The notes beneath the pieces are model-generated. The model did no database searches, was not told the DNA's origin, and was given only the letters and a program-made list of their open reading frames with translations. Both the position numbers and the translations under genes were made by a program. This document shows positions 477 through 22,622 of a DNA stretch of 64,000 nt, in pieces (the stretch's first letter is position 1; every line of letters begins with the position of its first letter). Where the stretch lies: the NCBI GenBank assembly GCA_020051075.1, contig JAGVJP010000012.1, positions 9,575-73,574 on the forward strand, written 5' to 3'. This stretch comes from Parachlamydiales bacterium (lineage in GTDB: Bacteria; Chlamydiota; Chlamydiia; Chlamydiales; Parachlamydiaceae).

Positions 477-3400
477 TTAAGGGTCGTTTTTTTTGTTTTT
501 TATAATTTTTTCCCATAGATGATTCACGTAAGACGAATTTTCATTGTGTTTTAATCCCAATAATTCAATAAATAATTTTTGAAAATTTTCCAGGTATCCT
601 TCCTTTTCATTCCATTCACCAATCTTTGTTGTTAAAAATGTTCGATCTGGTGAGGGGGTTCTAATCAACTTATAGAGATGGTTTACCCACCCTTTTTTTT
701 GTTCTATTGATTGGGATGAGATTAAAACGGTTTTACCATTCATTTTTCTTAATTCTTCTTCTAAATTCCCGCTTAGAGGTGCTAATTGGATATCAATATC
801 AACATTAAGAAATCCTACCTGATTAAGCTGTTCTTTGAGTGTTCCTAGCACTGTTCTTTGCTGGCTGGCTATTTCATCGTTTTGTTCCTGAATTGTGACG
901 AAGTACACGATGTGAACTCGTTCCTTTTCGAGTCTTGCAGTTTTCTTTGCTAATACTTGAAGGAAATTGCAAAATGGATTTTCTGCTTTTTTCAAATCTT
1001 TTTGAAGTTCTTCTAATTGTGCAAGAACTTTTCTCTCTGGTTCATATGAAATGATTTCCGAAGTTTGACTTTCAATAAAGGTAGAAAGTGTTGATTTAAG
1101 TCTCTGATAAGTTTTTGGGATTGAGTTCAAGAATACCGCTAGTTTCTCGGTAGAGTCTTTGAAGGAAAAAGTAGTTGGATTTTCACAAATTTTCTCGATT
1201 CTTTCAATACTCTGAATGATGTTATCCGCATTTTTTAGATCTTCTGGATTATCCATTAATTGAGTAACGATATGACTATGGAATCCTCTTATTTGATCCA
1301 GTCTCTCTTTTAAGTTATTTCGATTTCTGACACTTTTGAAAATCAGGTCGATTTCTGATTGATAAACAGAGAGATCTATGTTAATGGATTGAATCAAGAA
1401 GTCGATCATTGAAGCATAGACCATTGTTTCAAATGGTTTAACGGTTTGCCTACTCTCAACAATTTGTCTAGATGAGATACTTGAGCTCAGTAAAGGGTGG
1501 AAATGACTATCCAAGGAAAAATGGCTAGGCGAGAACAAATTTAACAGCTGGTCTTCTTTAGGTTCAACAGCTAAAACTGGAAGGTGTTTGATATTAACTA
1601 GTTTGCAAACCGTTTTTATCGGGATTTCTCTGTCAGTCTCGGATATATCTAGCTTAGACCAGGTTAGAGGGCTAGGTAGTAATACATGATCATTGTATAT
1701 TTGGAAGAGTTGTTTTTGAATTTGAATCACTTTTTCTTGATCTGGCCCCCTATCGTAAATTTGAGATAATAGACTGAGTCCCTGAATGCAACTGACTACA
1801 CCATCACCTGTTGAGCCTTGTTTTTCTGCTACAGACAATCCTCTTTCAACCCATTGCGGAGTTTGTGAGGGCTGTTGAAGATTGCCTATTTGGTAGCAGA
1901 TTTCGGCGTAGTATTCATGAGGACCTTCGAGAAGACTCTCTATATAATCCAAGGATTGAAGAAAATGAGATAGTGCTGAATCCTTTTTTTTCTCGATATT
2001 CAGATGATATAACCCCAAGTAATAACTAACGGTTATAAGGTGGGATAAAGATTCTTTGTCAACTAAGTCCTTTTTTTCAAGGTGAGTCAGGTTTCGAGCT
2101 GAACTCACATCTTCAGTAGAACTAGAACTGCTTGAAAAGGCACCAGTTAGAGTGTTCTCTTGCCCAAGCAACAAATTTTCGAAACGTTTTTTCGAATCAG
2201 TCAGACAATTGTGAGCTTCTTCTTTTAATTCTGATTTTTCCTTAGCTTTTTTTGCGTGAGTTTCTAATTTTAGCGCAAGGAATCCGACTGACTTAAGACT
2301 TTCTGCTATGCTTGGATGATTCGCGCAGTAGCATTTTTTTCTTATTTTAAGAGCAATTTTTTGATTTTTAAGTGCTTCTTCATATTGGCCCACTTTTTCA
2401 TAAAGAATGCCAAAATGCTCGTAAATAATTGCCATATCGGGGTGTTTATCATACAAATCCTCTGACGCAAGTTTGAATGCAAGATTTAAATGAATGAAGG
2501 CGGACTGGTAACGTTTTAATTTCATTTCAACTGCTGCGATGTAAGTCAGGTTTTTAGCAAGGTCGAAATAATTTGCTTTCAAGTTGATGGGCCATTGGTC
2601 TAATAAGGCGATTCTCATCTGATAAGAATATTTTTGAGCTCCTAACGCTTTTGTATAACATCCCAGTTTTGCATTTGCTAGTCCAAGGCGCTCATAAAAA
2701 GTTGCTAATTTGAGATGATTGAGTTTGACATTATCCTCCAAGAAAGACACTTCAACATGTTCCTCTCCAAACGGAATCAACTTCTCTAATCCTAGAATTT
2801 GATACTGCAATTTAAGGGCCTCCATTTGATATTCAACGGCTATGTTATATTCGCCAAGTTGCATGCATGATAGGCCTAAGTCACTAAAGCAGACTGCCCG
2901 GAAACTTGTATCCTTTTGATTTGATCTTTTCAAAGCAGTGCCTTGGAAATCCCATGCTTTTTTGTATTCTCCCTTGCAAAAGTAGAGATTCCCAAAAGCG
3001 TGGAGGGTTCGAGCTTCTTCAAGCCCTTGCTTATATCGGGGGATGTTTGATAGAATTTGAAATGCTCTTGCTAGGGTTATTTTTGAGAGATTGCAGGCAG
3101 TCTGCGAGTAGCTCAGGTTATGTTGCAGCGTTCCTATGCGAAGGGAGTTGCGGACAACTGCTAAAGTATTTGGATGTTTTAGAAGGTTCAGTATTTGCGC
3201 CGCTCTTTGAAAGTAAGCAAAGGCTTTTCGGTAATTCCTACTATCATGGTAAAGGCTTCCTATGTTCTCGTAGCCTTGAGCCAAACCTATCTTTTCAATA
3301 TCTTGAAGATTATTCATATCTTTTCCTCGAGACATCGATAATCTAAGATCTAGACATTTTTGATAATTCTTGTAAGCTTTGTTGTATTCACCAACTGTTC

Positions 3401-6400
3401 TGTAGTTGTGACCAAGCCGTTGGCGATATTTTGCAATCCTTTGGTGATTTGAAGCTTGGTGCTTTTTGCTGAGCTTTAAAGCTTTGTTATATGATTCGAT
3501 AGCTTTTTGATACTGTTCCAAAACCTCTTGGCAACATCCAATGTTGTAATACTCGTCTATAGTGAATGAGTGGTTTTCTCTTAAGGTGACTTCCCATATC
3601 TTTTGTGCTGATAAATGAAAAGTGAGCGCTTGTTTTATTTTTCCCATTTCTTGCAACGAGAGAGCAACATTGTGAGCGCAATAGGCAATTCCTGCTAATT
3701 TGAGTTTTAGCTTAGATTGTTCTGATGTTGGAGAGTGAGTTGAGCTGGTTGCGCTACTTTGATCAAGCATCTCAGTATTATTTTCTAATCGTTCGAAGAT
3801 ATTTATTAAGCATTCTCCAATGATTTCGTTGGAACGATTAATTTCAGCTTCAGAAAGTTTTATTGATGGCTCGGAAATCTCGGAATCAGAATCTCTTCTG
3901 TTTGTGAATGCGTTGATTTCCTCTATAGAGCTTTCGGAAAGAAACTCGGCAGCCCTGATACAGAAGGCACTATATTTAGCATTCAATGCTTGGAATCTAT
4001 ATTTCTCAGTTTCTGAAGCGCTATTTAGAGGGTTATCGCTTAAGGCTTGATAAGTAAAGCCTAAGTTATTAAGGCTTCTTGCCACTTCTTCGCTGTCTGG
4101 CGTAAGATTTGATCTAATTTTTAACGCTCGCTCCTTACGGTCTTTTCCTTTCTCATGTTTTCCTAAACGATCATAACTAAGTCCAAGCAAGTCGAGGAAT
4201 AGTGCCTTTTCGTTTGAGTTATTTGGTAGAATTGTCACTAGATTCTTTGCGATTCCTTTAGCATTACTAAATCTTCCTTCGAAGAAATGGTGACGCCAAA
4301 CCAGTTTTGGTGCAAGAAGTTCTAGGGAAGTAGATCCTTTTTTATGCTCTCGAAAGCGTGTTTGAATTGTAAAATTAATCATTGCATTGATGTGAATCTT
4401 GTGTTTTTGGGGGAACTCGTCTCTACTATCTAATAAATTGTCCGGTTCGAACCCTTTGAATGAATTTTGAAGGTAATCATCTATTGTAGATAAGATTGCT
4501 GGTACCATCCTGTCTCTAAAAGAACTGAGTGTTTTACTAGATTCATGAATTAAACTTGCTAATACTGGGTTCATCAAGTATTTTTTCTCCGGTTTCCCCC
4601 CTTCTTCCTCTTCAATTGGTTGGCTTAGTCCTGTAAAGATAGGACGATTTTTCTCGATAAAGCCGTAATCTTGAAGCTCTGCGAGCATGTGAGCGAGCTT
4701 CTCTCGAGGATAAAATAGCTCAAGAAATTCTTCTGATATTGACGCAGGGCTTAAGATCGCTAGAAAAAGGGGTAAGTCACTTAAGAAATACTCTGCATTT
4801 TCTCCTTTGATTCGATCAATAGCAATTCGAATCATCCAAACTATCGCCTGCTCTTGAAGAAGAGCGTCTCGGCTCCTGGATTGGGGGTGTTCAAGGGGTG
4901 GATCGATTGAACTTGAAGATGAAAAACTTGAAGAAGATGAAGAACTAGAGGATGAGGGGCTAGATAATAATTCTACCGGAAGAGAGAGGCTGCTAGCCTC
5001 ACCTGTAGGCATGCCAGAGAGTCTTTTTTTTAAAAATGTTAAGGCATCAATGACTTGGTCCAAGACCCTTCCATCGGAACTAGGATCGATTGTTTGGTTA
5101 GGGGAAAGATTGCAGAATTTTAAAATAAAATTTCTCGCAAGACGTATTGCAAGGGGATTGTGCTCTATTTTGGTGATAATGTCCTTTTGCAATTTTACTA
5201 ATTCTCTTCTTGAAGAAGGAGGGATAGAGAGCAGGGAGTTTGTCAACTTTTCTAACGATAAAGAGTGGAATAAGTACTTTTCTTCTTTTTTGGAGTAACG
5301 CTCTAAGGTAATCAAATCTGGAGGATATAGATTGTTATTACAGATGGAAGGATCAATTGTAGTGATAATAAAGGGCAAAGAGGTTTCATTGATTTTTAAT
5401 GTCTTGGTGATAAATTCCCAGGTCTCTTTGCTATCCAATCGGTCAAAAATGAGCAAATCATTTCCTTCTCGACGAAGATAACTTCGAAATCGCAGAACTC
5501 CCTCATCTTCTAATTCGTCTTTGATTTGTTCATCTGGTAGTGGGAGATTTAGTTTATCTGAAATTGTTTTACATCCTTCTGCAACAGCCAATCGTGTTTG
5601 AGAAGGGATAAAAAAGCAACGTTGATACTCAGACTGATGTTGTCTGACAAACTCACGAATGAGGATTGACTTTCCTACTCCTCTAACGCCTGTGACGATG
5701 CACCTTCTATACTGAGTCATTTTTTCTGAGAGTTCTTTGATTGCTTCCGGCCTTGAGATAAACTCCGGGTCTAGGGACGAAGGATTAGAAGTTGGGATAT
5801 CTAATATCTGAGGAACTCTGCTAACTAAACGGCTTTCATTTAGAGAATGAACTCCTCTTCTCAGAGAAAATCGAAATGTTCCTTTGTTTGGGCAAGCAAA
5901 GGTGATTTGGTTAACAATTTTTAGAAAGCACCTACTGCTCTGCTCGATCCCCCTATTGTAATCGAATCTCTCTTTAAGAGCTGTGAGGTATGCCTCTCTA
6001 TCTTGGACGGTCATTGCTTCTAGGGGAGAGCTTGCGTAAAATTCCATTAGAGCTTTGTATGTTCTGAAGTCTTTTAAATGAATCGCCCATTCGGGTGAAT
6101 GAGCCGCCCATTCGTCGGTGTAGTCATTTTCATAATCTCCTTGTTTAATGCTGCAAATCATCTTTTCAATCTCTTGAGTAAGCGGAGGAAAGTATAAATG
6201 ACTCTCTTTAACGACAGCTTGAACTGCAAATCCTTGTTCTTGCAATTTTTTCTGAACATGAGATCGAATGTTAGAAAAAGAAAATCCTCTAATAAAGGAG
6301 GGGTGTTGTTTTGCTAACACAACACCATCTGTCTCTTCTTCATTATGGACGAAAACGACCATAGCGTTCTCATCACACCAATATTTTAGTTGATTTAAGA

Positions 6401-7265
6401 GAATGTCCATATTGGGTTGGTTAAGGTAGACATGAGAAAGAACAACAATTTGGGCTTTCTCTCTAATCGAGGGAGGGGGGGATTCCATGATGCTGTGAAT
6501 AACGAATTTAGAGCGAATATGACTGGTGGCTTGGCTGGCAAAAAGGGGTTGTTGTCTGCATTCAGCAATACAATCAGGCATGTTGTCAACACCGATGATT
6601 TGTAATTGTTCAGTTAAGTGCTTCGAATGCAATTCAATGGCTAATTCTGCAGATTGACGACCATTTCCACAACCTAAGTCAATTAATATTAGTGGATGAT
6701 TTCCAAACAGTTTTTCTTCAGAATATCGATGAAACAGTTCAATGCAGCTCGCAACAGTTTCTGCAATTTCTTTTTTTTCCGTTGTTTGTTGTTCAAAAAA
6801 CTTGAATATCTCCCCATATCCCTTAGCGGATCTTTGATCTTTGGAAATGGCTAATTGAGGAGATGGAGCTGGGCCGGGTCGATAGGCTTTATATCTGTCG
6901 AGAAGTAAACCACCTTCCACTGTTGCAGCGCGGATAGTTTCAGCAAGGGCAGGAAAAGGATTGAATTGGAATCTTCTGAATCGTTCGATTGTATGAGGAT
7001 TCTTAGAAATTCCATAGCCCATTTCATTTAAGCGAGATTCATCTTCGCGTGAGATCGCAACTCCTTCATTCAACTGTCTCTGAATGGCTAATTCAGATTC
7101 CCATCTTTCTTGTTGCTCTTGTCGGCTCTCAAGATTTAATACACGCAAGCGCTCTAATCGCATAATCAAATCTGACAACGTATGTTTTAAGATAGGCTCT
7201 CCTTCAATAAAGATTGAGGGGGTGATTCTTGAAGAACTGGATGAAATTGAGCTCATAGGATTCAC
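477..7265 (-). CDS. giant multidomain STAND protein: class I SAM-methyltransferase + NB-ARC-type P-loop NTPase + TPR array + uncharacterised C-terminal module
   Basis: Uninterrupted 2,262-codon ORF. MTase motif I ILIDLGCGNG (aa 192-201, nt 6663-6692), then IIGVD and QIVVLSHVY. Walker A TGVRGVGKS (aa 525-533, nt 5667-5693), Walker B LLIFDRLD (aa 604-611), NB-ARC-like EHNPLAIRLA (aa 701-710). TPR-like repeats over aa ~1020-1800 (nt ~1866-4208). Mixed-codon poly-Ser linkers. Confidence 0.8.
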   Translation of the reverse strand: MNPMSSISSSSSRITPSIFIEGEPILKHTLSDLIMRLERLRVLNLESRQEQQERWESELAIQRQLNEGVAISREDESRLNEMGYGISKNPHTIERFRRFQFNPFPALAETIRAATVEGGLLLDRYKAYRPGPAPSPQLAISKDQRSAKGYGEIFKFFEQQTTEKKEIAETVASCIELFHRYSEEKLFGNHPLILIDLGCGNGRQSAELAIELHSKHLTEQLQIIGVDNMPDCIAECRQQPLFASQATSHIRSKFVIHSIMESPPPSIREKAQIVVLSHVYLNQPNMDILLNQLKYWCDENAMVVFVHNEEETDGVVLAKQHPSFIRGFSFSNIRSHVQKKLQEQGFAVQAVVKESHLYFPPLTQEIEKMICSIKQGDYENDYTDEWAAHSPEWAIHLKDFRTYKALMEFYASSPLEAMTVQDREAYLTALKERFDYNRGIEQSSRCFLKIVNQITFACPNKGTFRFSLRRGVHSLNESRLVSRVPQILDIPTSNPSSLDPEFISRPEAIKELSEKMTQYRRCIVTGVRGVGKSILIREFVRQHQSEYQRCFFIPSQTRLAVAEGCKTISDKLNLPLPDEQIKDELEDEGVLRFRSYLRREGNDLLIFDRLDSKETWEFITKTLKINETSLPFIITTIDPSICNNNLYPPDLITLERYSKKEEKYLFHSLSLEKLTNSLLSIPPSSRRELVKLQKDIITKIEHNPLAIRLARNFILKFCNLSPNQTIDPSSDGRVLDQVIDALTFLKKRLSGMPTGEASSLSLPVELLSSPSSSSSSSSSSFSSSSSIDPPLEHPQSRSRDALLQEQAIVWMIRIAIDRIKGENAEYFLSDLPLFLAILSPASISEEFLELFYPREKLAHMLAELQDYGFIEKNRPIFTGLSQPIEEEEGGKPEKKYLMNPVLASLIHESSKTLSSFRDRMVPAILSTIDDYLQNSFKGFEPDNLLDSRDEFPQKHKIHINAMINFTIQTRFREHKKGSTSLELLAPKLVWRHHFFEGRFSNAKGIAKNLVTILPNNSNEKALFLDLLGLSYDRLGKHEKGKDRKERALKIRSNLTPDSEEVARSLNNLGFTYQALSDNPLNSASETEKYRFQALNAKYSAFCIRAAEFLSESSIEEINAFTNRRDSDSEISEPSIKLSEAEINRSNEIIGECLINIFERLENNTEMLDQSSATSSTHSPTSEQSKLKLKLAGIAYCAHNVALSLQEMGKIKQALTFHLSAQKIWEVTLRENHSFTIDEYYNIGCCQEVLEQYQKAIESYNKALKLSKKHQASNHQRIAKYRQRLGHNYRTVGEYNKAYKNYQKCLDLRLSMSRGKDMNNLQDIEKIGLAQGYENIGSLYHDSRNYRKAFAYFQRAAQILNLLKHPNTLAVVRNSLRIGTLQHNLSYSQTACNLSKITLARAFQILSNIPRYKQGLEEARTLHAFGNLYFCKGEYKKAWDFQGTALKRSNQKDTSFRAVCFSDLGLSCMQLGEYNIAVEYQMEALKLQYQILGLEKLIPFGEEHVEVSFLEDNVKLNHLKLATFYERLGLANAKLGCYTKALGAQKYSYQMRIALLDQWPINLKANYFDLAKNLTYIAAVEMKLKRYQSAFIHLNLAFKLASEDLYDKHPDMAIIYEHFGILYEKVGQYEEALKNQKIALKIRKKCYCANHPSIAESLKSVGFLALKLETHAKKAKEKSELKEEAHNCLTDSKKRFENLLLGQENTLTGAFSSSSSSTEDVSSARNLTHLEKKDLVDKESLSHLITVSYYLGLYHLNIEKKKDSALSHFLQSLDYIESLLEGPHEYYAEICYQIGNLQQPSQTPQWVERGLSVAEKQGSTGDGVVSCIQGLSLLSQIYDRGPDQEKVIQIQKQLFQIYNDHVLLPSPLTWSKLDISETDREIPIKTVCKLVNIKHLPVLAVEPKEDQLLNLFSPSHFSLDSHFHPLLSSSISSRQIVESRQTVKPFETMVYASMIDFLIQSINIDLSVYQSEIDLIFKSVRNRNNLKERLDQIRGFHSHIVTQLMDNPEDLKNADNIIQSIERIEKICENPTTFSFKDSTEKLAVFLNSIPKTYQRLKSTLSTFIESQTSEIISYEPERKVLAQLEELQKDLKKAENPFCNFLQVLAKKTARLEKERVHIVYFVTIQEQNDEIASQQRTVLGTLKEQLNQVGFLNVDIDIQLAPLSGNLEEELRKMNGKTVLISSQSIEQKKGWVNHLYKLIRTPSPDRTFLTTKIGEWNEKEGYLENFQKLFIELLGLKHNENSSYVNHLWEKIIKNKKNDP

Positions 7266-7350
7266 CTTGTTGTGTTATTTTAAAAAATTATGATAAAGAT
7301 AAACGTTGTCCACTAGTAAAAAGTTTATGATGGGATTTTTTTTGTAAAGC

Positions 7351-7379
7351 AAAAAGTATCCGTTCACAGGATACTTTTT
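7351..7379 (-). terminator. hairpin terminator downstream of smc (bidirectional type)
   Basis: Perfect 11-bp stem aaaaagtatcc / ggatacttttt with a 7-nt loop, 42 nt after the smc stop. A- and T-tracts are part of the stem. Confidence 0.5.
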
Positions 7380-11053: not shown

Positions 11054-12265
11054 TCAATAGAGAAACCCAAAAAGGAAGAGTGGGATTTCCCCTTTCATGG
11101 GGTGAAGGATATCGTCCTTAACCAAATAGGCTGTTTCCAAAACACCCTTGAGTTGGTCTTTAGTTTTGTTCTTTCCTCCAATCTCAAATACAACGTCTGA
11201 TGTTCTGTAATCAGCCTGTTTGGAATAAAATAGTTCGATCCCAATATTCTGGAGAGATTGAACAAAAAATAGCCCTCTTATCATTTCTTTCGAGATCGAT
11301 TGACCTAGATATTGATGAAGTGTGTAAATCAAATTGGTATTATTGAGAATTATTTTCATGGGTTTGCGCAATCCAGGACTACCTCCTTCAAATGGCCGCA
11401 TCTCACGAATCAGACCCACAGAACCTAAGATCGTTAAATAATGTTCGACCGTTTTGTGATCGATCATCAAACTTTTAGCTAAATTGTGTACATTAAGATC
11501 TCCAGGAGGAATAGAGGCTAAATAAGATAGTATTTTTTTGAAATAGTGAAGATTGGGTGTTTTTAAATTATAAAAATTAGCGATATCTTCAAATATTGTT
11601 TTGTCGATCACTCTGGAAATTTTTTCATAGTAAGAATGAGGGTCTTCGAAAACAAAGGGGTAATATCCTTGTGTGAGATATTCCTCAAAGTGAGGAAGTA
11701 TTCTTTCGACCCCCTGCAATTTTTTCAGAGCTGTTTTAGGATCATCTAATATTTCTTGAAACGGGATGACTGGGAGTTTAAAGTTGAAAGCAAAGTTGAG
11801 ATATTCTCTGAAAGATAGTCCATGAAGTCTAAATAGTTTGGCTCGACGAGATAGATCATGGCTTCCCTCAATGAGATCGAGCATTGAGCTGCCTGAGAAG
11901 ATGATCTTTAAATTTGGAAAAGCATCATAGATATTTTTTAGTTCCTGATTCCATCCTTGGTATTTATGGATTTCATCGATGAATATAATCTGATATCCCT
12001 CGATGAGGTGAAGGTCGCTTACAAATTCAAGGAGTTTGGATTGTTGAAAATAAATCAAATCTGCAGAAAAATAAAAACATTTTGGATTTTGAAGAAGCTC
12101 GTTTTTAATATATTGCAGCATTAACGTTGTCTTTCCCACTCCTCTTGGGCCGATAAGCCCTGTCAGACGATTTGTTAAATTAAATGTCGAATAAAGATAT
12201 CTTGTATGAGTCAAGGAAATCCCCTCAACGAGACGGTGAAAAGTTTCTGAAATAAATCGAAACAT
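11054..12265 (-). CDS. AAA+ ATPase of the COG1373/DUF4143 type
   Basis: Walker A GPRGVGKTTL and Walker B IIFIDEIHKY. I place the start at the internal ATG (MFRFISETF, 12265). The ORF-track start at 12391 would overlap the snf2 3' end. Confidence 0.75.
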   Translation of the reverse strand: MFRFISETFHRLVEGISLTHTRYLYSTFNLTNRLTGLIGPRGVGKTTLMLQYIKNELLQNPKCFYFSADLIYFQQSKLLEFVSDLHLIEGYQIIFIDEIHKYQGWNQELKNIYDAFPNLKIIFSGSSMLDLIEGSHDLSRRAKLFRLHGLSFREYLNFAFNFKLPVIPFQEILDDPKTALKKLQGVERILPHFEEYLTQGYYPFVFEDPHSYYEKISRVIDKTIFEDIANFYNLKTPNLHYFKKILSYLASIPPGDLNVHNLAKSLMIDHKTVEHYLTILGSVGLIREMRPFEGGSPGLRKPMKIILNNTNLIYTLHQYLGQSISKEMIRGLFFVQSLQNIGIELFYSKQADYRTSDVVFEIGGKNKTKDQLKGVLETAYLVKDDILHPMKGEIPLFLFGFLY

Positions 12266-12344
12266 ATTTGGAATGGACTCCAGTATTTTGGCTAAAAATC
12301 TGGAGTATACTCCAAAAAAATCGGAAACGCAAGATAATTTGTTA

Positions 12345-15300
12345 CTATTCTTGCTGCAGTTCTGAGATCGACAGAAGCTGCATGAGGTCATCGCGTGAGA
12401 ACGTTTTTAATAGGTTTTGATCATCGACACCGATGATGTCTTCCATGAGCCGCCCCTTTCTTAAGATCATCTGATCGATTTTCTCTTCGAAGGTGTCTTT
12501 GCTTACGAGTTTAAACACTTGCACCCCGCGCGTTTGGCCGATGCGATGAACACGGTCAGTCGCTTGATTTTCCCTTGCAGCATTCCACCAGCGGTCGTAG
12601 TGGATCACAACAGAACCTGCGGTGAGGTCGATGCCAAGCCCTGCCGCTTGCAGAGACCCGACGAAGACTTCGCAGGAAGCTTCTTGATTAAACTTCTGCA
12701 GCTGTTCTTTGCGGTTAGTTGTAGAACCTCGCAGAGAGGCGAAGCCAATTTTATGTTCTGTTAAGTATGCCTCAATGATGTCAAGCATCCCCAAATATTG
12801 GGAGAAGACGACAACTTTTTGTTTGCTCTGTTGAGCCTCGCTGAGGAGTTCAACGAATAGATTCCATTTGCCAGATGAAAAATTTTTGTATTGATCAACC
12901 TTCTTTAAGTAGACAGCGGGATGGTCGCAAATTTGCTTGAGGCTGGATAACAAAGCAAAAATATGCATGTAAGGGATAGGCGAAGCTGCATCTTGTAAGT
13001 TTTCGATGAGATGCCTTCGCCGCATTTCAAGCACTTCTCGATAGAGTTGATGCTGTTCTTGAGTCAGATCGCAGTAAGACACCTCTTCAGTTTTTTCCGG
13101 AAGGTCTTTCAAGACATCGCTTTTCTTTCTCCGCAGGGTGAATGGATGGATCAAGCGGTTAAGGATGACCTTGCGGTTTTCATTGTACTCCTTCTCAATA
13201 GGTTTGATGAAGAGTTCCCGGTACTCTTTTTCTCCGGGAAAGTAATTTGGGAGGACAATATCAAAAAGCGACTTCAACTCTCGCAAATAGTTTTCAATCG
13301 GAGTACCCGTCAACCCGACCTTCATTCTGACATTCACCCTTTTCAATGCAGCATAAATGCGGCTGGATTGGTTTTTAGCGATTTGTATTTCATCAAAAAT
13401 CGCTGCTTCGAAAGTGAGTTTGGAAATCGAGTCGCTTTCGTTGCGCAAGACTCCATAAGAGGTCAGGAGAACATCATATTCTTCGTGGAAATCTTCTAAA
13501 CGTCTCTTTGTTCCGTGGAATGTGCAAACATTCAAACTAGGGAGAAATTGTTTGAGTTTATCTTCCCAGTGATAAATCACTGAGGTTGGACAGACGATTA
13601 AGAAATGAAACGGCATCCCTTCAGCGTAGGTGTGGAAAAAATTGGCGATGCTTGTGAGAAGAGCCATCGCTTGGTGCGTTTTCCCCAATCCCATATCGTC
13701 GCATAGCAATCCAGACAGCTGCTGCCGATAGAGAAACCAAAGCCATTGCAACCCGATCTCCTGATATGGACGCAGATGGCTCTGCAATCCTGTAATGTCA
13801 GGTTGATCGGGAGTGCGCAATTGGGTCAGGTTATTGAGGACCTCAATGGTAGAGGCGGAGACATCTCCTTCGGCTTGTGTTGGATAGGAGATGGGATCAA
13901 AAGCATTGAGTCGCATGAATTCGAGTGTAGAGAGGAGAATCGTCTCATTTTTTTTGTCGAAGCGGTCTTTAAGCAACCCTCTCAGCCAATCAAAACGACT
14001 ATCAGAGACGTTGAGCAACCCTGCTTCAGTGAAAGCAAAAGGGAACTTCTTGTTTATCCTTTGTTTAAGAGTCAATGCTGAGACTGTTCCTAACTCTGTG
14101 TTGTAAAAGATTTTAAAGCGATACCATCCACGCCCTCTATCATCAGCCGGTTCAGCAAACGTTGTGGTGAGTTGTAAAGATTGGGGTTTCATGAGTTGAG
14201 GGTCTATGCGGAGAGAATATTCTTTTAATTGATCAATTTCATATTGAAGAAACAGCTGTACTTCCTCTCCTTCTATGATAGAGGTGTGTCTGAATTTCTC
14301 AGGGAGGCGTAAGTGTGGGGGAAGCTCTGAGAATCCTTCCCCAGCTACGTAGACGTAGTCATCGAAGACGTCAATGGATTTCTCTTGATATTCAGGAAGG
14401 AGATCAAAGACAGGAGAGATCTTGAGTTTGATTTTCTCAACCAGTTCGACTTGCAAAGTGATTTTCTTGATGGGGCATTTAGAACTGAAAAATCGAGAAA
14501 TTAAAGAGAGCTCCTCCTGGTTGATATGGATGAACAGAGGAATCTGTTCTGGACTGATTGAGAGGTTACCTTTGAGGAGGTAGTTGAAGGATCCCGCTGT
14601 TTTAGAATAGAATCCATGTTCTCCTAGATAAATCCATGCCCCAAAATCTTGAAGGTGGCTGCTCTCTTCGGAGTCAGCAAGCACGCGCGTGAAGGTCAAT
14701 CGCTTCTGAGGACTGACTTGGTAGGTCATTTGATATTCGATGCTTCTCAGGTGAGTGTGGAATCCTTCTATCGTATTTAGCCATAAACGGTTTTGAGTGA
14801 CGAATTCGGATACTTTTTGAATAGGGATCACCGTTTCAACTTCTTCAAAGCGGACATTGTCAAGTGGATAAAATCCATCGCTATCTAAATAAGCCCATTT
14901 GCCAATGAGCCACGAGTCTCCGGAGGAGAGGTCGCCAGGTTCGAATAGGTATGCTTCGACATGTAGATTCCAATGCTCATCAAAATGAAGATGGTAAGAC
15001 AAAGGGATTTCATCTCGATAGAGCGTGCAGTTAGACAATAGGCTGGCGATGAGGCGTGGGTACTCTGTCAACACATAAGCGATTTCGTCTCCATAGATCT
15101 CTTGATTTTGTAGCAGGTCGTGTTGGTTTTCGGCATAGAATCCTACCCCTGGAACATAGACCCAACCGTTTATTTTGATCGTTTGGGCTAATTTTGTCTT
15201 AGAAGGCTGATAAGTTTTTCGATTTTTTATGGGGTGGACGTGTAAAACATGACTCTTTTTATCATAAGAGATGCTTTCAATGTTTGTTTGGATGTTGTTG

Positions 15301-16178: not shown

Positions 16179-17384
16179 CTAATTTACCCGAAGCCAGTTA
16201 TCTAATGCCGCACGGTGTCCTGCCTGCGCACTGGGCTCATTAGGAGAAGAGGGCCGTGCAGCGCCATACCACAGTTCACCACGATCTTCTGGGATTTCGA
16301 ACCCTTCTGGGAGGTTTCCGTTAGTACTGAAATCAACATCCTCTAAAATTCTCTTACCTACAGAGTGGTGTATATGCTCCACATCAACTTCCAAATGGGT
16401 AAATCGATAGAAATTCGGTTGATTGTTGATGACTTCTTGAGTAATGGTAGGAGTGATGTCTTGAGCTCCTTTGACAATCATGCATCGTCCTCTGAGCTCG
16501 GGGAGCCGAGATAACGTGTCAAATTTTGTGATGCGGTTATACACGGCTTGTGCAATGCGACGGAGGAATTTAAAGATTCTCATCTCTTTCAGACGGACAT
16601 TGGCAACGTCCGATGCTTTAGTGAAGGTTCGGTCAAGGACGATGTCAACGTTACGTTCTGTTGCCAGATAGGCTGCTGCAGCACCCCCTAAGGAGTAGCC
16701 GATGGCTTTGGTTCTAGCTGGTGGGATGCCTCTCGTTCCTGCTTGTCGTTGCATTTCGTCGAAAGCATTCACCGTATCTTCATAGACATGGTGTTCTGTA
16801 CGGCTGCCTTCACTTCGACCGAAACCAGAGTAATTAAACACCATCACATCGTGTCCCATTTCTGTTAAAGATTGAATCATGGGCAAAGCATAATTTTCGT
16901 AAGACTGATGGCTTCCCGTGCAGAGAAGGATCGCTTGTTTTGTGCTTGCTTCCGAGGCTGACCTCGGATGTGTGCTGCTAAAATAAATTCCTTCCAACGC
17001 CCTTGCTGGGGTTCCACTGGAAAATTGAATTTCAGAGGCTTCCCAATGGAAGAAATTTTGATTGATTCGAAGACCTAAGGTTTCAATAGGATCTAACATG
17101 ATGCTGCGAATATAGTTGTTGCGCTGGCGAGCTGTTTCATCACCGATCGCCACCCGATTGGTAATTCTCTCGAGGAAGCTCATGAATTTCCCTCTCGGGG
17201 ATACGCGTGTGGTGTGAAGTTGCCGAGGCTGAACAGCTGCTGGTTGTTCGTTTATTTGAAGTGCTGCTTGCCCGATTAGGGGGATATTCGCTTCAATAGT
17301 TGGTGTGGTTCTGGGATGAGTGTCATCTGGCGTTAGGGGGGATGTTGTCACCGGTGGATTAATATTATTACTATCTGTTTGCAT
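16179..17384 (-). CDS. alpha/beta-fold hydrolase with disordered Pro/Thr-rich N-terminus
   Basis: Nucleophile elbow GYSLGGAAAA, upstream FNYSGFGRSEG, about 70 aa low-complexity N-terminus. AT-rich 5' flank. Confidence 0.7.
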   Translation of the reverse strand: MQTDSNNINPPVTTSPLTPDDTHPRTTPTIEANIPLIGQAALQINEQPAAVQPRQLHTTRVSPRGKFMSFLERITNRVAIGDETARQRNNYIRSIMLDPIETLGLRINQNFFHWEASEIQFSSGTPARALEGIYFSSTHPRSASEASTKQAILLCTGSHQSYENYALPMIQSLTEMGHDVMVFNYSGFGRSEGSRTEHHVYEDTVNAFDEMQRQAGTRGIPPARTKAIGYSLGGAAAAYLATERNVDIVLDRTFTKASDVANVRLKEMRIFKFLRRIAQAVYNRITKFDTLSRLPELRGRCMIVKGAQDITPTITQEVINNQPNFYRFTHLEVDVEHIHHSVGKRILEDVDFSTNGNLPEGFEIPEDRGELWYGAARPSSPNEPSAQAGHRAALDNWLRVN

Positions 17385-17721
17385 ATAAAACCAATAACTA
17401 TGTGTTTGTTTAAATATTACATAGTAATTATATATTATAAGTTGTTAATTTATAATTAAGAAAGTGTTGTGTTATATAAATAAAAACATCTTAGCGAATT
17501 GGTTCGTTGCAAAAGCGGAAGATGACTGAGTAACACACTATCCTCCCCATCCTGTCAATTTTACAGAATGGGATGGTTGGGAAATTGCTTTAGCCAGTGT
17601 TACTTTATGAGTGACGATGTCGTTTGGATGCTCCAAAGGCTTAGCGAAGCCACATTTGGGTTAAGAGAACGTTTGAAGTGGGGGAATTCTCTTATCCGCG
17701 GCATAGGAAAATATTGACATG

Positions 17722-17753
17722 AAAAAAGCCCTCTCAGTTTACCGAGAGGGCTT
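17722..17753 (-). terminator. rho-independent terminator of the Pmp-like gene
   Basis: On the minus strand, a 10-bp GC-rich stem (aagccctctc / gagagggctt) is followed by TTTTTT, 32 nt after the stop. Confidence 0.75.
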
Positions 17754-17784
17754 GTTGTATAGAAGATAATTCGATGAATTCTTA

Positions 17785-19449
17785 CTATTTTACGAAGGGA
17801 CTTGTCGAATCGCCATTGATGATCGAATTGATCGCATAGATCGAGTTACCTAACGAGGCTCGATTGCGTATGAAACGATCTTTCTCAAGAGTTGCAGTGG
17901 TAAGATTAAGATAAATTGCTCCACCATTGAGACCAGCTTGATTGGATGCAAAAGTCGATCTTTCAGCAACCAAGACAGTGCTATCCACTGTGATAGGCAA
18001 GGGTGTTGGGAAAGGGTAAGTGCTTGGTAAAGAAGCAATAGCCCCACCGTTTTCTGTGTTAGAACGATTTTTTCTGAAAATGCTTCTAGTGACTTTTGTT
18101 TCTGCAATGAAGCCATCAGCTCCGCTGCCGATGATATTTTCACCTGCTGAGTTTCCGTTCAAGATTGCGCCACCAGGACTATTTTGAGCTTCATTCCCAA
18201 TGAATCTGGATCTGTACACATCAAGGTAGCCATTGGTATAGACAGCGATGGCCCCTCCACCAAATGGGAAGTCAATCCCAGAAAGCACTGGTCCTCCAAA
18301 CAGGATATCATGTAAAAATTTATTGCCTCGAGCCTCATTTTGGATAAATTTACACTTTGTGATTGTTGTTGTAAAGGGTGTAAATTGACTTTGAGCAAAG
18401 GCCGTAACAAAGGTGTTTACGACGTTTGTTGTTGATAAAGCACCACCTGCAACAGAAGCAAAATTCTCTTCAAAAGAGGAATTTAAGACATTCACTTTTA
18501 AACTATCTATTGCTACAGCCCCGCCAACTTGAGCAGAATTAGATTTGAATGTACATCCTTTAATTTCTGCAAAAGATTCGCTATGCCCTATAGAGCCTTC
18601 AGCCACAACAGCCCCTCCAAAAAGAGTTGCGTGATTTCCTTCAAAGAAGCTTGATTCGATGGTTGCGGTGTGTGGAGAAGTTTCAAATGAATTTAAGACT
18701 TGAATAGCACCTCCATTTGGGCCTGAAGTGGAGTTGCTGATAAATCGAGATTTTTCAATATGCACCACTGAATTGTTGGAAAATAAAGCCCCACCAAAAT
18801 CCGCTGCTTTGTTATTTATGAACAGAACATTTCTGATTCTAACCTTGGAATCAAAAATAGCGTAGACACCACCGCCACTGGAATGATCAAAAGTGAATGG
18901 GGAAAAGAGAGGATTAGATCCTATCGGTCCATTGGCATTGCCTTCATTGATGACCAATCCATCTAGTTTGACGTTGACTCCAGTTTGAGTAATGTCATTT
19001 CCTAAGGTCACAACGTGCCAACTTGTGCTGCCTCCGTTCAATACCGTTTGGTTCTTCTTTGGGTTACGTTGTCTTAAATTCGTTTCCGTTCCGTTGAAGC
19101 CACCAAAAATGGAAACGTTATTAGGAATGTCGAATGTCACTAAGCCAGGGTTAGAAAGACCGAGAGCACCTCCCACAACTCCGCTTGGTGAATAGATTAC
19201 TGATGGGAAGTAGCTCCCCTTGGCCACCCAAATTGAATGGCATCTGGAGGAAGAGATTGCTGCTTCGTCAAGAGCGCTCTGGAGGCTTACAAAAGCTGTA
19301 TTCCATGATGTGCCATCTTGGACTGGATTCAAGTTATTTACATTGACATAGATCACTTCAGCTTTTGCTGACCCAGCAACAAACAGCATTCCAAGAAAGA
19401 GCATAAAGGTCAAGAGGCCCCGCATTCTAGTGGGGAGTAAATTTCTCAT
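17785..19449 (-). CDS. polymorphic-membrane-protein (Pmp)-like beta-helix repeat protein, no autotransporter barrel
   Basis: About 10 GGA[ILV] motifs and about 10 FxxN motifs (FISNST, FEGNHA, FKSNSA, FIGNEA, FASNQA...). Signal peptide MRNLLPTRMRGLLTFMLFLGMLFVAGSAKA if the start is the ATG at 19449 (ORF track starts at 19518). Confidence 0.8.
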   Translation of the reverse strand: MRNLLPTRMRGLLTFMLFLGMLFVAGSAKAEVIYVNVNNLNPVQDGTSWNTAFVSLQSALDEAAISSSRCHSIWVAKGSYFPSVIYSPSGVVGGALGLSNPGLVTFDIPNNVSIFGGFNGTETNLRQRNPKKNQTVLNGGSTSWHVVTLGNDITQTGVNVKLDGLVINEGNANGPIGSNPLFSPFTFDHSSGGGVYAIFDSKVRIRNVLFINNKAADFGGALFSNNSVVHIEKSRFISNSTSGPNGGAIQVLNSFETSPHTATIESSFFEGNHATLFGGAVVAEGSIGHSESFAEIKGCTFKSNSAQVGGAVAIDSLKVNVLNSSFEENFASVAGGALSTTNVVNTFVTAFAQSQFTPFTTTITKCKFIQNEARGNKFLHDILFGGPVLSGIDFPFGGGAIAVYTNGYLDVYRSRFIGNEAQNSPGGAILNGNSAGENIIGSGADGFIAETKVTRSIFRKNRSNTENGGAIASLPSTYPFPTPLPITVDSTVLVAERSTFASNQAGLNGGAIYLNLTTATLEKDRFIRNRASLGNSIYAINSIINGDSTSPFVK

Positions 19450-19847
19450 GTAAACGCCAAAATCAGATAGGTTAAAAAACTTCTGGCCCTGGCTCGATTC
19501 GTAGCAATTTTTTCTCATAAAAATGTCCTAACTATTCGCGTTAATAAACAAAGAAACTCTCTTCGTTCAGTTGATGATCCAATGAACGTTTCATAGGATG
19601 TATGCTGGATGAATAATAGAGTTCGTTGGTTAAAGTCAAATAAAATTTTTAACCCTTTCCTTTAGGTCCCTTGTCCTTTCTATAAAGTTCGCTTAACCTG
19701 TTTTTTTTGAAATGAGTGACGAGGGGCGTGGGCTTTTCTACATCATAGTAGCTGGATTACCTTCTTCGTTATGGATGATTACCTCCAAATAGCTGTAGAG
19801 CTTCTAACCCAAATGATGGCTAGGAAGTTATTTATTGTCTGTAGATA

Positions 19848-22622
19848 TTAAATCTCTAATATCAATCCTGTGGGAAGCTTATCTCCATAGACCTCTTCTT
19901 GTTCTTCTTTTGTCAGCACATGCTCTTCTGTTAAGAGCTGTCTGAGGTGGGGATTGGGGTAAAGATCTAAGATTCTGTTGACGAGCTGTTCGGAGATGTT
20001 GAGCTCACGCTGGCCGACTTTTCGTCCGAGCTGTCCGAGGAGAAATTGGATCGATTCCAAAAGTTCCGGGCGGAAGGAAACGCGTAAGATTGATTCAATC
20101 CATTGCATGCAAACCTCTTTTGGAATTACCTGTCCCACAGAGCCATAGAGAAGATGGCGAGCGCCAATCCTTCCTAATGCCCAACATTCGTACCCTTCAG
20201 GCGACTCTTTAGTGACTTCGTCGATCAACCCTTGGCCAAGACGGATTTTCATCGCCAGGTCGAGCCTTTCAAACGAAGCCAGCATCCTGATTTGTTCTGC
20301 ATAGAGATAGAGCTTCCCTTTTTTCTTAACCTCAAATCGTCCTGTTTTCTTATCTAAGATGCTGGGGAGGACGTCGCTGGCTATTTGCGCTTGTTGCCCT
20401 TTGCTGAGGCCTGCTGCGATCCGTCTGAAACAGATCCATTGCTGAATTTGGCAATCTGAAGAAGCAGGAGTTTTGATGTCAGCTAGAGCGATCTTCCAGA
20501 GTTCTTTCACCCGGAAGTCATCTAAGGGATAGCCTAAACCTGGGCGCAAGAAAAACCCAGCAAGATTCCACCACCTAGCTTCGAGTTCGGAGGATAATTT
20601 CCTTTGCGCCGCAGCTTTGAGAAGAGAGGAGAAAAGCTCTCGCAGAATATTGGGTCCCCAATCGCGACGAGGTCGACCAATTTGAGCCTCTAGCAGCTCC
20701 ATGATTTGTCCTGATTTGATCGAAGAGCCCCTTTGAAATAGCTGTTGGATGAGCTGCTGCGAGCTCTCCAATTCCCCTTGCGAAAATATCTCTTCGGAAC
20801 GGGGTTTTTGGCTGTCCAAGGGGGTCTCAGCCTGGCCAGAGGCTGAGCGGACTTGAAACTCCAGGATCCATTGATGGCTGCTCTTCTGTGATTCAAGCCA
20901 CAATTCCAGGGTGCCGATGGCCGTCAGCCTCACAGCGAGGAATGCGGGAATTGTCTCTGATTCACTCGTTGTCTCAGTTTTTTTTCCGAAGCGCAGGATT
21001 GTCTGTATGGGGGGGAGCGACTGCATTTCTTGAGGGTCTATTTCTACCAGATCTCCTTGACTATCATTTAAGCGCACATGCGAAGTGAGAAGATGAAAGG
21101 CAATCGGTTGATTTGGCCGCAGCTGAAAAGGGTGCTCATAGCGAAAATGGTATCCCTCTTCAGCTTTTCTTGGAACGAGTGTGATTGCTTTTGAAGAGAA
21201 TCCGGAAGCTTCTTTGACATCGATTTTAAGGTAATAGGAGCGGGGCAATCCACCGTTGATCGATATCCCATGGCCGCGGCTAGCTTTGCCATAATAGGCA
21301 GCTCCTCTAGAGACGGCGAGGTCTAAGCTTGTTGAGGAGAGGCGCTGAAGTGGATGACCTGGAAACCATTTCTTGATAGCGTTTTGAATAGCTTTTTGAA
21401 AAGATTCCGGCTTGATCGCCCCTCCATTGAAAAGGATATAGTCAATCCCTTTTTCTTTTTCTAAGAAATGCGACTGCTGAAGGAAGAGGGCGAGATGCTT
21501 AGTGATTGATGGTTCATCTTCATATGGAAGACCCATTGTGCGAAATCCGCGGCTTCGATGGATTTGAAGTGCTTCTTCGAGAGGGTAGTCCTTAAAGAAT
21601 CCATTGAGAAGCAGGTCTTCAACCTCTTTTCTTGAAATCGATGTCGAAGAACTGCCTTTGATGACCGACGACCCCTTGCCTTGGATAACGATGGGATGGC
21701 GTTGTTCAGGGGAGGATTGAGGGCTTAATAAGAATTCTTTAGCTTCACGGGTCTGCGCAAGCAATTGCTGCCATTGACCCGACTCCAGCACAGGTGCTCC
21801 TTGTCCTTCTAATTGTTTCTCCAAATAGTGTGCGAGGGTTGCATCCATGTTGTCGCCTCCTAATAGGAGGTGATTGCCAACAGCATTTCGTTGGAATGAT
21901 AGGGTTCCATCATCCTCTTCTATCTGAATCAGGCTGAAGTCTGTTGTTCCTCCTCCAATATCGCATATAAGGACAACGTCGCCAGGGCGGAAAAGCTTTA
22001 TCCATTCTGCTTCATGCTCTGAGATCCAGCTGTAAAATGCTGCTTGAGGTTCTTCTAATAGAGTGACATGTCTGAATCCTGCTTGAGTGGCTGCTTCAAC
22101 GGTTAAATGGCGGGCGATTTCATCGAATGAAGCCGGCACCGTTAAAATGATCTCTTGCTCTTCTAACTCCTCTTCAGGGTTTCCTTTAGCGATGGAGGTA
22201 TTCCACGCTTCTTTCAAGTGGATGAGATAGCGAGCAGAAACTTCAACTGGACTCATTCGTTGAGAGAGGTCTGCAGCTTCGATAGGGAGGATTTTGTCTC
22301 TTCTATTCGCAGCGACATTGCAGAGCCAGCTTTTTGCCGACTGGATTAAGCGGGTGGGAACTTTAGCTCCTTCCGTTTTAGCTAGCCGTCCAACAAAATG
22401 GAAGGTTTCTTCTTTCCAGGGCAGTCTAAGGGTGTTTGCCGCCCACTCACCGGTTCCGATGAGATAGCAGAATGAAGGGAGGGTTGTGGAATATTCTACT
22501 CTCCCTTCAGCAGCAAGTTGAGGAATCGCAAATTGTTGGATGGAAAGGGAAGGTTGTTGAGTATCTACGAAGGATAAAGCGCTATTTGTTGTCCCTAAGT
22601 CGATCCCAATCACATAGCGCAT
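19848..22622 (-). CDS. atypical Hsp70-family ATPase (924 aa) with about 500-aa C-terminal extension
   Basis: Actin-fold motifs IGIDLGTTNS, CDIGGGTTDFS and LFNGGAIKP. The C-terminal half is not a canonical DnaK substrate-binding domain. Confidence 0.8.
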   Translation of the reverse strand: MRYVIGIDLGTTNSALSFVDTQQPSLSIQQFAIPQLAAEGRVEYSTTLPSFCYLIGTGEWAANTLRLPWKEETFHFVGRLAKTEGAKVPTRLIQSAKSWLCNVAANRRDKILPIEAADLSQRMSPVEVSARYLIHLKEAWNTSIAKGNPEEELEEQEIILTVPASFDEIARHLTVEAATQAGFRHVTLLEEPQAAFYSWISEHEAEWIKLFRPGDVVLICDIGGGTTDFSLIQIEEDDGTLSFQRNAVGNHLLLGGDNMDATLAHYLEKQLEGQGAPVLESGQWQQLLAQTREAKEFLLSPQSSPEQRHPIVIQGKGSSVIKGSSSTSISRKEVEDLLLNGFFKDYPLEEALQIHRSRGFRTMGLPYEDEPSITKHLALFLQQSHFLEKEKGIDYILFNGGAIKPESFQKAIQNAIKKWFPGHPLQRLSSTSLDLAVSRGAAYYGKASRGHGISINGGLPRSYYLKIDVKEASGFSSKAITLVPRKAEEGYHFRYEHPFQLRPNQPIAFHLLTSHVRLNDSQGDLVEIDPQEMQSLPPIQTILRFGKKTETTSESETIPAFLAVRLTAIGTLELWLESQKSSHQWILEFQVRSASGQAETPLDSQKPRSEEIFSQGELESSQQLIQQLFQRGSSIKSGQIMELLEAQIGRPRRDWGPNILRELFSSLLKAAAQRKLSSELEARWWNLAGFFLRPGLGYPLDDFRVKELWKIALADIKTPASSDCQIQQWICFRRIAAGLSKGQQAQIASDVLPSILDKKTGRFEVKKKGKLYLYAEQIRMLASFERLDLAMKIRLGQGLIDEVTKESPEGYECWALGRIGARHLLYGSVGQVIPKEVCMQWIESILRVSFRPELLESIQFLLGQLGRKVGQRELNISEQLVNRILDLYPNPHLRQLLTEEHVLTKEEQEEVYGDKLPTGLILEI

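Follow-up and report, generated by a model that had tools for sequence, protein, structure and literature searches.

The 64,000-nucleotide stretch of Parachlamydiales bacterium DNA analysed here (NCBI GenBank assembly GCA_020051075.1, contig JAGVJP010000012.1, positions 9,575 to 73,574; hereafter the window) carries near its start a gene for a giant protein built from four parts. On the evidence of its sequence and of a structural model, the N-terminal part, or head, is assigned to the histamine N-methyltransferase (HNMT) family, with all of its S-adenosylmethionine (SAM)-binding motifs intact. The head is followed by an NB-ARC domain of the STAND class of nucleoside triphosphatases (NTPases), by a degenerate array of tetratricopeptide repeats (TPRs) and by an orphan C-terminal tail. 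A methyltransferase head is unusual on a STAND protein, and the giant protein is no recognised member of the Avs/bNACHT group. Our tentative reading, held with somewhat less than even confidence, is that of a lineage-specific, fast-evolving, giant modular host-interaction protein, in which a target-recruiting methyltransferase effector is carried on a STAND scaffold. The giant protein looks more like the modular proteins that environmental chlamydiae inject into their hosts than like an anti-phage defence protein.

Gene and domain organization

The gene occupies one open reading frame (ORF) of 2,262 codons, a GTG being taken as the first (477..7265, minus strand), which runs without interruption as a preliminary description made from the sequence had reported. 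An ATG codon lies three codons past the GTG, at 7256, with a Shine-Dalgarno-like AAGGTG 6 nucleotides (nt) upstream, and is likely to be the true start, giving a product of 2,259 amino acids (aa). The ATG-started product is identical to the public protein P0005 (2,259 aa), which is annotated merely as a 'tetratricopeptide (TPR) repeat protein'. The gene is present in one assembly only. Residues are numbered here from the GTG codon at 7265, and subtracting 3 gives the numbering from the ATG start, as used for P0005. The preliminary description had also proposed an enzyme head, a STAND NTPase, a repeat array and an extra tail, with poly-Ser tracts between modules that use mixed codons. Pfam and motif reading place the modules in that order, and the poly-Ser tracts are indeed written in a mixture of TCA, TCC, TCT, AGT and AGC. 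The features of the gene, from the N-terminus onwards, are:

477..7256, minus strand: coding sequence of the giant protein, ATG start, 2,259 aa plus stop (the GTG-started mechanical ORF reaches 7265)
7188..7256, minus strand: Ser-rich N-terminus (MSSISSSSSRITPSIF...), predicted disordered, a candidate type III secretion signal
6822..7187, minus strand: family-specific extension ahead of the methyltransferase, aa ~27-148, defined by alignments, with an invariant GLLxD..K.YRPGPA motif
5889..6821, minus strand: HNMT-like class I SAM methyltransferase core and C-terminal lid/substrate domain, aa ~149-459, from Pfam, Foldseek and profile comparison
5139..5741, minus strand: NB-ARC (AP-ATPase-type STAND) domain, from Pfam PF00931, NCBIfam and alignment to the NB-ARC of plant NRC1
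4908..4970, minus strand: poly-Ser linker, aa 766-786, mixed codons
4206..4883, minus strand: post-NB-ARC region, aa ~795-1020, presumed helical/winged-helix arm of the STAND module, no Pfam match
1866..4205, minus strand: degenerate TPR_12/kinesin-light-chain-type array, from Pfam TPR_12 and a hidden Markov model (HMM) of the 42-aa unit
480..1865, minus strand: orphan C-terminal region, aa ~1801-2262, predicted to be helical and then to form a beta-alpha-beta-alpha-beta-alpha segment

The GC content at third codon positions (GC3) is 0.30-0.35 in all segments of the gene, against 0.42-0.51 in the housekeeping neighbours, which suggests an accessory, fast-evolving gene. Neither GC nor GC3 shifts at the module junctions, which speaks against an assembly chimera.

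The head is an HNMT-like methyltransferase

In alignments of close relatives the head is a sharply bounded module, aa ~40-459, with a junction at aa ~459. Motif I (ILIDLGCGNG) lies at aa 193-202; the preliminary description had recognised the motif but placed it at nt 6663-6692, 3 nt away from its actual position of nt 6660-6689. The two strands that it had read after motif I are both present, IIGVD at aa 223, with the motif II Asp within IIGVDN, and QIVVLSHVY at aa 272, in which the SH.Y motif forms the end of strand 4. A methyltransferase is also found by Pfam, where Methyltransf_31 matches aa 194-296 just above its cutoff (27.4 bits against 27, rising to 30.4 bits with the segment scanned alone) and Methyltransf_23 and Methyltransf_25 match the core as well. 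Four motifs are invariant in the head alignments: D-x-x-C-G-N-G of motif I, G-x-D-N of motif II, S-H-x-Y after strand 4 and GLLxD..K.YRPGPA upstream. The catalytic motifs are unchanged in five of five close relatives; the motif I glycines, whose conservation the preliminary description had proposed to examine, are thus retained, DLGCGNG being invariant in the close family.

An AlphaFold2 (AF2) model of the head, calculated from a 5-sequence alignment, has a predicted local distance difference test score (pLDDT) of 75 and a predicted template modelling score (pTM) of 0.66. Compared with the Protein Data Bank (PDB) by Foldseek, its best match is human HNMT (1jqd, 1jqe, 2aou; E 2.4e-10, template modelling score 0.66-0.68), followed by GtmA, TmtA, OxaG and other small-molecule methyltransferases. 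Sequence alone leads to the same enzyme, as a 24-member family profile (A3) run against the PDB also finds HNMT first (E 5.7e-14, 55.5 bits), in an alignment that begins at the N-terminal helix Y...F..F...T.EK. Since HNMT comes first by both fold and sequence profile, the head appears to be an enzyme of the small-molecule or side-chain type and not a DNA or RNA methyltransferase. The latter was considered as a candidate and rejected, because fold and profile both indicate small-molecule N-methyltransferases. Against a viral structure library the head matches generic class I methyltransferases only.

The head shares with human HNMT motif I, the two-domain layout and the N-terminal helix Y...F..F...T.E(K/H), which lines the substrate pocket in HNMT. 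The two differ in several respects. Identity is just 11-12%, a conserved Ser-His stands in place of Ile-Gln143 of HNMT at the end of strand 4, and the C-terminal lid is distinct. The head also carries a family-specific N-terminal extension of ~110 aa and is embedded in a protein of 2,259 aa.

The extension (aa ~27-148) is confined to the close (tier-1) family and is modelled at pLDDT 67-88 except in the loop 124-146. Ahead of it, residues 1-23 are predicted to be disordered (AF2 pLDDT ~30). The fraction of polar residues (S/T/P/Q/N) at the N-terminus is 0.44, compared with a mean of 0.28 in the other genes of the window, a measure that serves as a heuristic only.

The NB-ARC domain has an altered catalytic site

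Pfam NB-ARC (PF00931) matches aa 509-709 with 40.4 bits (cutoff 23.5, E 2.6e-10), so the domain that had been read from its motifs is also recovered by profile. NCBIfam FxSxx_TPR scores 106 bits, which is under its cutoff. The motifs named in the preliminary description are all present: the Walker A sequence TGVRGVGKS falls exactly where it was placed, at nt 5667-5693, and its GVRGVGKS (aa 526-533) fits GxxxxGK[ST]; the Walker B sequence LLIFDRLD lies at aa 604-611 (nt 5433-5456); and the GLPL-like HNPLAI motif (EHNPLAIRLA) is intact at aa 701-710 (nt 5136-5165), within the NB-ARC match.

The domain therefore has the profile, the P-loop and the GLPL motif of an NB-ARC, and lacks the canonical Walker B acid and sensor-I Arg. 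In the alignment to plant NRC1, LLIFDR stands opposite LIVLDD, so that the second Walker B acid is replaced by Arg, and IITTID stands opposite LLTTRD, so that the sensor-I Arg is replaced by Ile (TTR to TTI). Given an intact P-loop together with these two replacements, the NB-ARC would be expected to bind nucleotide with slow or altered hydrolysis. The Asp at +3 (DRLD) may compensate for the replaced Walker B acid; Walker B variants of the form hhhhD-x-x-D are common in bacterial NB-ARC-TPR proteins.

For the NB-ARC and post-NB-ARC regions, a word-index search (E<=0.01), JGI metagenomes, the retrieved family proteins and phages yielded no relatives. Only a marginal P-loop alignment, at 24% identity, to a TPR protein from a Bacillus plasmid was obtained.

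The TPR array and the orphan tail

The run of TPR_12-like repeats described earlier at aa ~1020-1800 is real, though degenerate and interrupted. Pfam TPR_12 reaches 143.9 bits over 7 stretches, and an HMM of the 42-aa unit, derived from relatives, locates 12 units at aa 1021-1671, beyond which helices of TPR-like character extend to ~1800. The array is interrupted by a low-complexity insert of ~115 aa (aa ~1076-1190; nt 3696-4040) and, at aa 1711-1716, by a run of poly-Ser. The likeness to the arrays of relatives is generic only, with 21-25% identity.

The extra C-terminal domain of the preliminary description exists as sequence, and has the lowest GC3 within the gene (0.30), but it matches no known domain or protein. 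No homologue of the tail was found in Pfam (E<=10), PHROGs, the PDB, the retrieved family proteins or a word search of 5.8 billion proteins. Its AF2 model, made from a single sequence, has a pLDDT of 42 and is unusable for fold comparison. A C-terminal TIR domain, for which a search had been suggested, was rejected: at E<=10 Pfam places neither TIR nor TIR_2 on aa 1800-2262, whether scanned whole or in sub-segments, and the PDB and PHROGs give no match either.

Relatives of the head carry other scaffolds

A database search with aa 4-1020 returned four proteins only, two of them from named Parachlamydiaceae, and all four align solely to aa ~1-430 (35-38% identity). When the head was run with HMMER against 1.84 billion representatives, 455 matches were obtained at E<1e-3 and 17, including the giant protein itself, at E<1e-30; about 50 relatives of the head module lie at E<1e-10.

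Eleven close relatives reach past the head (P0001-P0004, P0007-P0009, P0013, P0014 and loci L001 and L002, from Parachlamydiaceae-type metagenome-assembled genomes, those with a name being Parachlamydiaceae). All 11 are assigned a DUF294 (pol-beta type) nucleotidyltransferase where the giant protein has its NB-ARC; the assignment is by Pfam for most, by reading a degenerate nucleotidyltransferase motif in P0013 and P0014, and by assumption in P0008, which has no match at E<1e-4. The giant protein has no Pfam match to DUF294. A TPR_12 array is present too in seven of the 11 (P0002, P0007, P0008, P0013, P0014, L001 and L002), and the others have few repeats or none or end earlier. These methyltransferase-DUF294-TPR proteins share the whole head of the giant protein, aa ~40-459, at 36-40% identity. 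Methyltransferase motif I is degenerate in P0013 and P0014, and so is the Asp/Glu motif of their nucleotidyltransferase, indicating that pseudo-enzyme paralogues exist in this family.

Two further observations concern individual members. P0007 has ~17 near-identical 42-aa TPR units, which suggests a recent expansion of the repeat. In L002, the gene at 3083-7351 is a tandem duplicate of P0002 that has no methyltransferase head and starts with a hydrophobic segment; an F-box was looked for in this paralogue and was not found.

Further out in the methyltransferase family (E 1e-22 to 1e-5), the enzyme is combined with a variety of partners. It is joined to Ank and OTU in P0049, to Ank and TPR_12 in P0053, to GNAT in P0030, and to TPRs and a C-terminal hydrophobic segment, Inc-like by eye only, in P0077; in P0044 it lies between an unassigned N-terminal region and an adenosine deaminase. 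P0095 (metagenomic, 1,234 aa) consists of methyltransferase, Ank and an NB-ARC/NACHT domain with canonical motifs, and is the only other methyltransferase-STAND fusion found. Its head is likewise HNMT-like (E 7.4e-6 to the head profile), but with 20% identity to that of the giant protein, and the two NB-ARC domains cannot be aligned by BLASTP. P0095 differs also in its canonical Walker B (FDD) and sensor-I (TTR) motifs, in having ankyrin repeats in place of TPRs and in its hydrophobic C-terminus. A shared origin of the two fusions was considered and is unsupported, the proteins being too distant, and P0095 is probably an independent event.

The neighbourhoods of the relatives are of a similar kind. 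Beside P0007, locus L005 encodes a diversity-generating retroelement pair (bAvd and RVT_1), a U-box and TPR protein and a 1,902-aa NACHT and ankyrin protein (2148-3558, 16868-22576), the last of which indicates that giant STAND proteins with eukaryote-like repeats recur in this lineage. An ankyrin protein is found in the neighbourhood of another relative (L004). F-box, U-box and OTU are domains whose targets are the ubiquitin systems of eukaryotes. The Ank, OTU and U-box partners and neighbours of the head relatives thus argue for a host-directed function.

Comparison with NEX2 and with STAND proteins

The NEX2 family of Neochlamydia (Domman et al. 2014) has 50 members, with an F-box head, sometimes accompanied by OTU, a mid-protein DUF294 and C-terminal TPRs, and was read by its authors as a family of type III effectors (PMC4209131). 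The methyltransferase-DUF294-TPR relatives have the same arrangement of head, mid-protein DUF294 and C-terminal TPRs, the comparison being one of architecture alone. The giant protein resembles NEX2 in being a giant modular protein of Parachlamydiaceae type, in which a variable head precedes a central domain that handles nucleotides and an array of the TPR_12 type at the C-terminus. It differs in that the central domain is a P-loop NTPase of the NB-ARC type and not a pol-beta-type DUF294 nucleotidyltransferase, and in having a ~460-aa orphan tail and no F-box. Of the features that would mark a NEX2-like protein, the giant protein therefore has the head shared with the relatives and the TPR_12 array, and lacks the mid-protein DUF294.

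With the NB-ARC STAND proteins (Apaf-1, plant NLR, bacterial NB-ARC-TPR and Avs proteins) the giant protein shares the NB-ARC domain, the P-loop, the GLPL-like motif, an N-terminal enzyme and C-terminal repeats. Its head, however, is an HNMT-like methyltransferase and not a nuclease, protease, TIR, SIR2 or CARD domain. It is also set apart by the replaced Walker B acid and sensor-I Arg, by the orphan tail and by its occurrence in an obligate intracellular bacterium. In the literature searched no description was found of a methyltransferase effector on bacterial STAND or NLR-like proteins, nor is there a PADLOC model for one, in agreement with the earlier statement that a methyltransferase in this position is not a described architecture. 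Acanthamoeba castellanii is a typical host of environmental chlamydiae. Its genome encodes an NB-ARC-TPR protein, which the genome paper proposed to be a pattern-recognition receptor (PMC4053784).

A possible role in host interaction

A host-interaction role is suggested by the occurrence of the head on DUF294-TPR, Ank and OTU scaffolds and by the U-box and Ank neighbours of its relatives, a signature of the effector pools of amoeba-associated bacteria (PMC4209131). It is suggested further by the combination of a discrete conserved head, low GC3, a disordered Ser-rich N-terminus and the lack of a defence context. When a NEX2 member was assayed in Shigella, its type III secretion signal proved functional (PMC4209131).

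The mechanism that we envisage would start from a mobile enzyme head recombined onto an NB-ARC-TPR scaffold, the junction being the sharp one at aa ~459. The protein would be exported by type III secretion via its disordered Ser-rich N-terminus. The TPR array and the orphan tail would then bind a protein partner of the host or, possibly, of the bacterium. The NB-ARC, binding ATP/ADP, would act as a slow-hydrolysing conformational or oligomerization switch, a role that DUF294 would have in the sister proteins. Finally, the HNMT-like head may methylate a small metabolite of amine or imidazole type, or a residue of the recruited partner.

Several points weigh against a secreted effector. The case for secretion draws on heuristics of N-terminal disorder and composition alone, and the composition argument is weak, the background range being wide. 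At 250 kDa the protein would be unusually large for a type III substrate. The methyltransferase-DUF294-TPR relatives match NEX2 by architecture only, with no F-box in the adjacent paralogue, and just two of the 50 NEX2 members were computationally predicted to be secreted (PMC4209131). The order of head, NTPase and repeats, moreover, is also that of the Avs and NLR immune sensors.

Genomic neighbourhood and alternative readings

The giant gene lies downstream of a canonical smc gene (E 1.9e-130 to the head of B. subtilis Smc). The spacer between the two genes and the gene upstream of smc contain the following features:

7351..7379, minus strand: hairpin then T-run within the 155 nt that separate smc from the giant gene, RNAfold -14 kcal/mol, then TTTTTGCTTT
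11054-12391, minus strand: AAA_14 and DUF4143 ATPase gene, between the SNF2 helicase and smc, its mechanical ORF overlapping the SNF2 ORF by 47 nt

The hairpin and T-run are a probable smc terminator, and with this predicted terminator in place the giant gene is probably transcribed separately, from a promoter of its own. Immediately downstream of the giant gene, at 99-350 on the minus strand, is an 83-aa ORF with a ribosome-binding-site-like AAGGAG before its ATG and no Pfam, PHROG or PADLOC match. Besides the AAA_14/DUF4143 ATPase and the SNF2 helicase, the other neighbours are a DUF818 (CHLPS) hydrolase, a PMP-like protein, an Hsp70-DUF3731 protein, AlaDH, MFS, PBP and HisRS. The Chlam_PMP repeats and the DUF818 (CHLPS) match among these neighbours support a chlamydial origin of the window. 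The AAA_14/DUF4143 gene has a GC3 of 0.345, low as in the giant gene, scores 115 bits against PDC-S01, a PADLOC candidate family that is unvalidated, and may be an inserted accessory gene.

The preliminary description regarded the giant gene as the best candidate in the window for an undescribed sensing or defence system and proposed an inspection of its neighbourhood. The defence reading is not supported. PADLOC finds no Avs, bNACHT or NLR model in the whole giant protein, only a generic 31-bit match of mad2 to the methyltransferase, and on the NB-ARC segment only marginal PDC-S01 P-loop matches; the enzyme is of the HNMT type, and the scaffolds of the relatives are effector-like. The neighbours are canonical Smc, the SNF2 helicase and housekeeping genes, and comparison of the window genes with Pfam and PADLOC revealed no defence system, defence island or mobile context around the gene. 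The PADLOC matches of the neighbours (mad3, LmuB, DpdE/ZorD, mad8 at 25.6 bits and PDC-S01) are at the level of the fold and belong to ordinary ATPases and helicases. As the mad2, mad3 and mad8 matches might recall a MADS/BREX-like island, this candidate was also considered. MADS needs MAD6, MAD7 and MAD8 together with the DNA methyltransferase MAD2 (preprint 10.1101/2023.03.30.534895). It was rejected, since the 'mad3' gene is canonical smc, MAD6-8 are not present and the methyltransferase is HNMT-like.

An immune role within the bacterium is nevertheless the subject of one alternative, in which the giant protein would be a STAND sensor of the Avs/NLR type: the TPRs and tail would sense a protein of a phage or mobile element, the NB-ARC would oligomerize, and the methyltransferase would modify a cellular or viral molecule, leading to abortive infection. 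The shared order of effector, NTPase and repeats is as this would predict, and an atypical composition without orthologues is common among defence genes; STAND fusions to this methyltransferase family appear to have arisen at least twice, and the AAA_14/DUF4143 gene with its PDC-S01 match lies two genes upstream, beyond smc. We nonetheless consider it unlikely, given the PADLOC result and the housekeeping neighbours just described and the eukaryote-directed partners of the sister and distant proteins (OTU, Ank and the U-box neighbour). To our knowledge, moreover, no small-molecule methyltransferase of the HNMT type is an abortive-infection or toxic effector, and nothing was matched in phage collections, while the plasmid collection gave only the marginal Bacillus P-loop match. 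More generally, the protein might work like an NLR and deliver SAM-dependent methylation as its output, with a ligand at the TPRs and tail leading to NB-ARC assembly and so to activation of the HNMT-like methyltransferase, either as a bacterial immune sensor or as an 'NLR' secreted into the amoebal cytosol; this we hold to be rather improbable.

We are similarly doubtful, and think it distinctly unlikely, that the protein is a cytoplasmic signalling STAND comparable to MalT or AfsR, in which a bacterial metabolite or protein at the TPRs would switch on small-molecule methylation, for instance in the course of the developmental cycle. In favour of this, enzymes of the HNMT type methylate small molecules, the gene is surrounded by housekeeping genes of the chromosome, and the NB-ARC-TPR part is like that of bacterial NB-ARC-TPR families, as judged by the FxSxx_TPR score and the weak match to the Bacillus plasmid TPR protein. 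Against this, the architecture is a singleton that is not kept even in related chlamydiae, its NB-ARC and tail are without homologues, its low GC3 is an accessory mark, and the head family is found with effector-like scaffolds (Ank, OTU, DUF294-TPR). A further alternative is a recent mosaic that is no longer functional as a whole, or an assembly chimera, with a dead NTPase, an eroding tail and a frame open by chance or for the head only. The orphan NB-ARC and tail, the replaced Walker B acid and sensor-I Arg, the degenerate and interrupted TPR array, the pseudo-enzymes P0013 and P0014 and the restriction of the gene to one assembly are all compatible with this. Yet neither the P-loop nor any methyltransferase motif is damaged, the Walker B sequence is of the variant common in bacterial NB-ARC-TPR proteins, and GC and GC3 do not change at the junctions. 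An open frame of 6.8 kb at about 38% GC, AT-rich and prone to stops, would be very unlikely without selection, which counts against decay, and we give a mosaic or chimera very little credence; about as little is reserved for readings other than the host-interaction effector, the immune sensor, the signalling protein and the mosaic.

Other features of the window

At 34654-37518 (plus strand) is an ORF of 954 aa that has no Pfam match and a GC3 of 0.346, like that of the giant gene, and that may encode an orphan effector-type protein. A GH5 cellulase (Pfam Cellulase, E 3.6e-45) is encoded at 55193-56395 (plus strand); that it acts on the cellulose-containing cyst walls of amoebae is speculation. 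The Hsp70-like protein with C-terminal DUF3731 ('DnaK-related', 924 aa; 19848-22622, minus strand) adjoins a 577-aa PMP-repeat protein (17785-19518, minus strand). Three tRNA genes (Rfam RF00005) lie on the plus strand at 37807-37877, 41200-41274 and 41278-41351, and no Rfam family besides RF00005 reaches its gathering score in the window.

Implications

The architecture of the giant protein is unusual and belongs to a phenomenon already known, in which modular effectors expand in particular lineages of amoeba-associated bacteria. The HNMT-like head is an uncharacterised enzyme module that recurs on giant modular proteins of amoeba-associated intracellular bacteria, beside hallmarks of host manipulation. 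The exchange of NB-ARC and DUF294 behind one head amounts to a natural domain swap, which could reveal the role of the central module. If the protein were an NLR-like methylation machine, NB-ARC and DUF294, two unrelated nucleotide-dependent modules, would be equivalent switches for one effector chemistry, and a role in immunity would make it the first STAND sensor whose output is a methyltransferase. Should the preferred role as a host-interaction effector be correct, HNMT-type methylation would be a new enzymatic activity in the repertoire that is directed against eukaryotic hosts.

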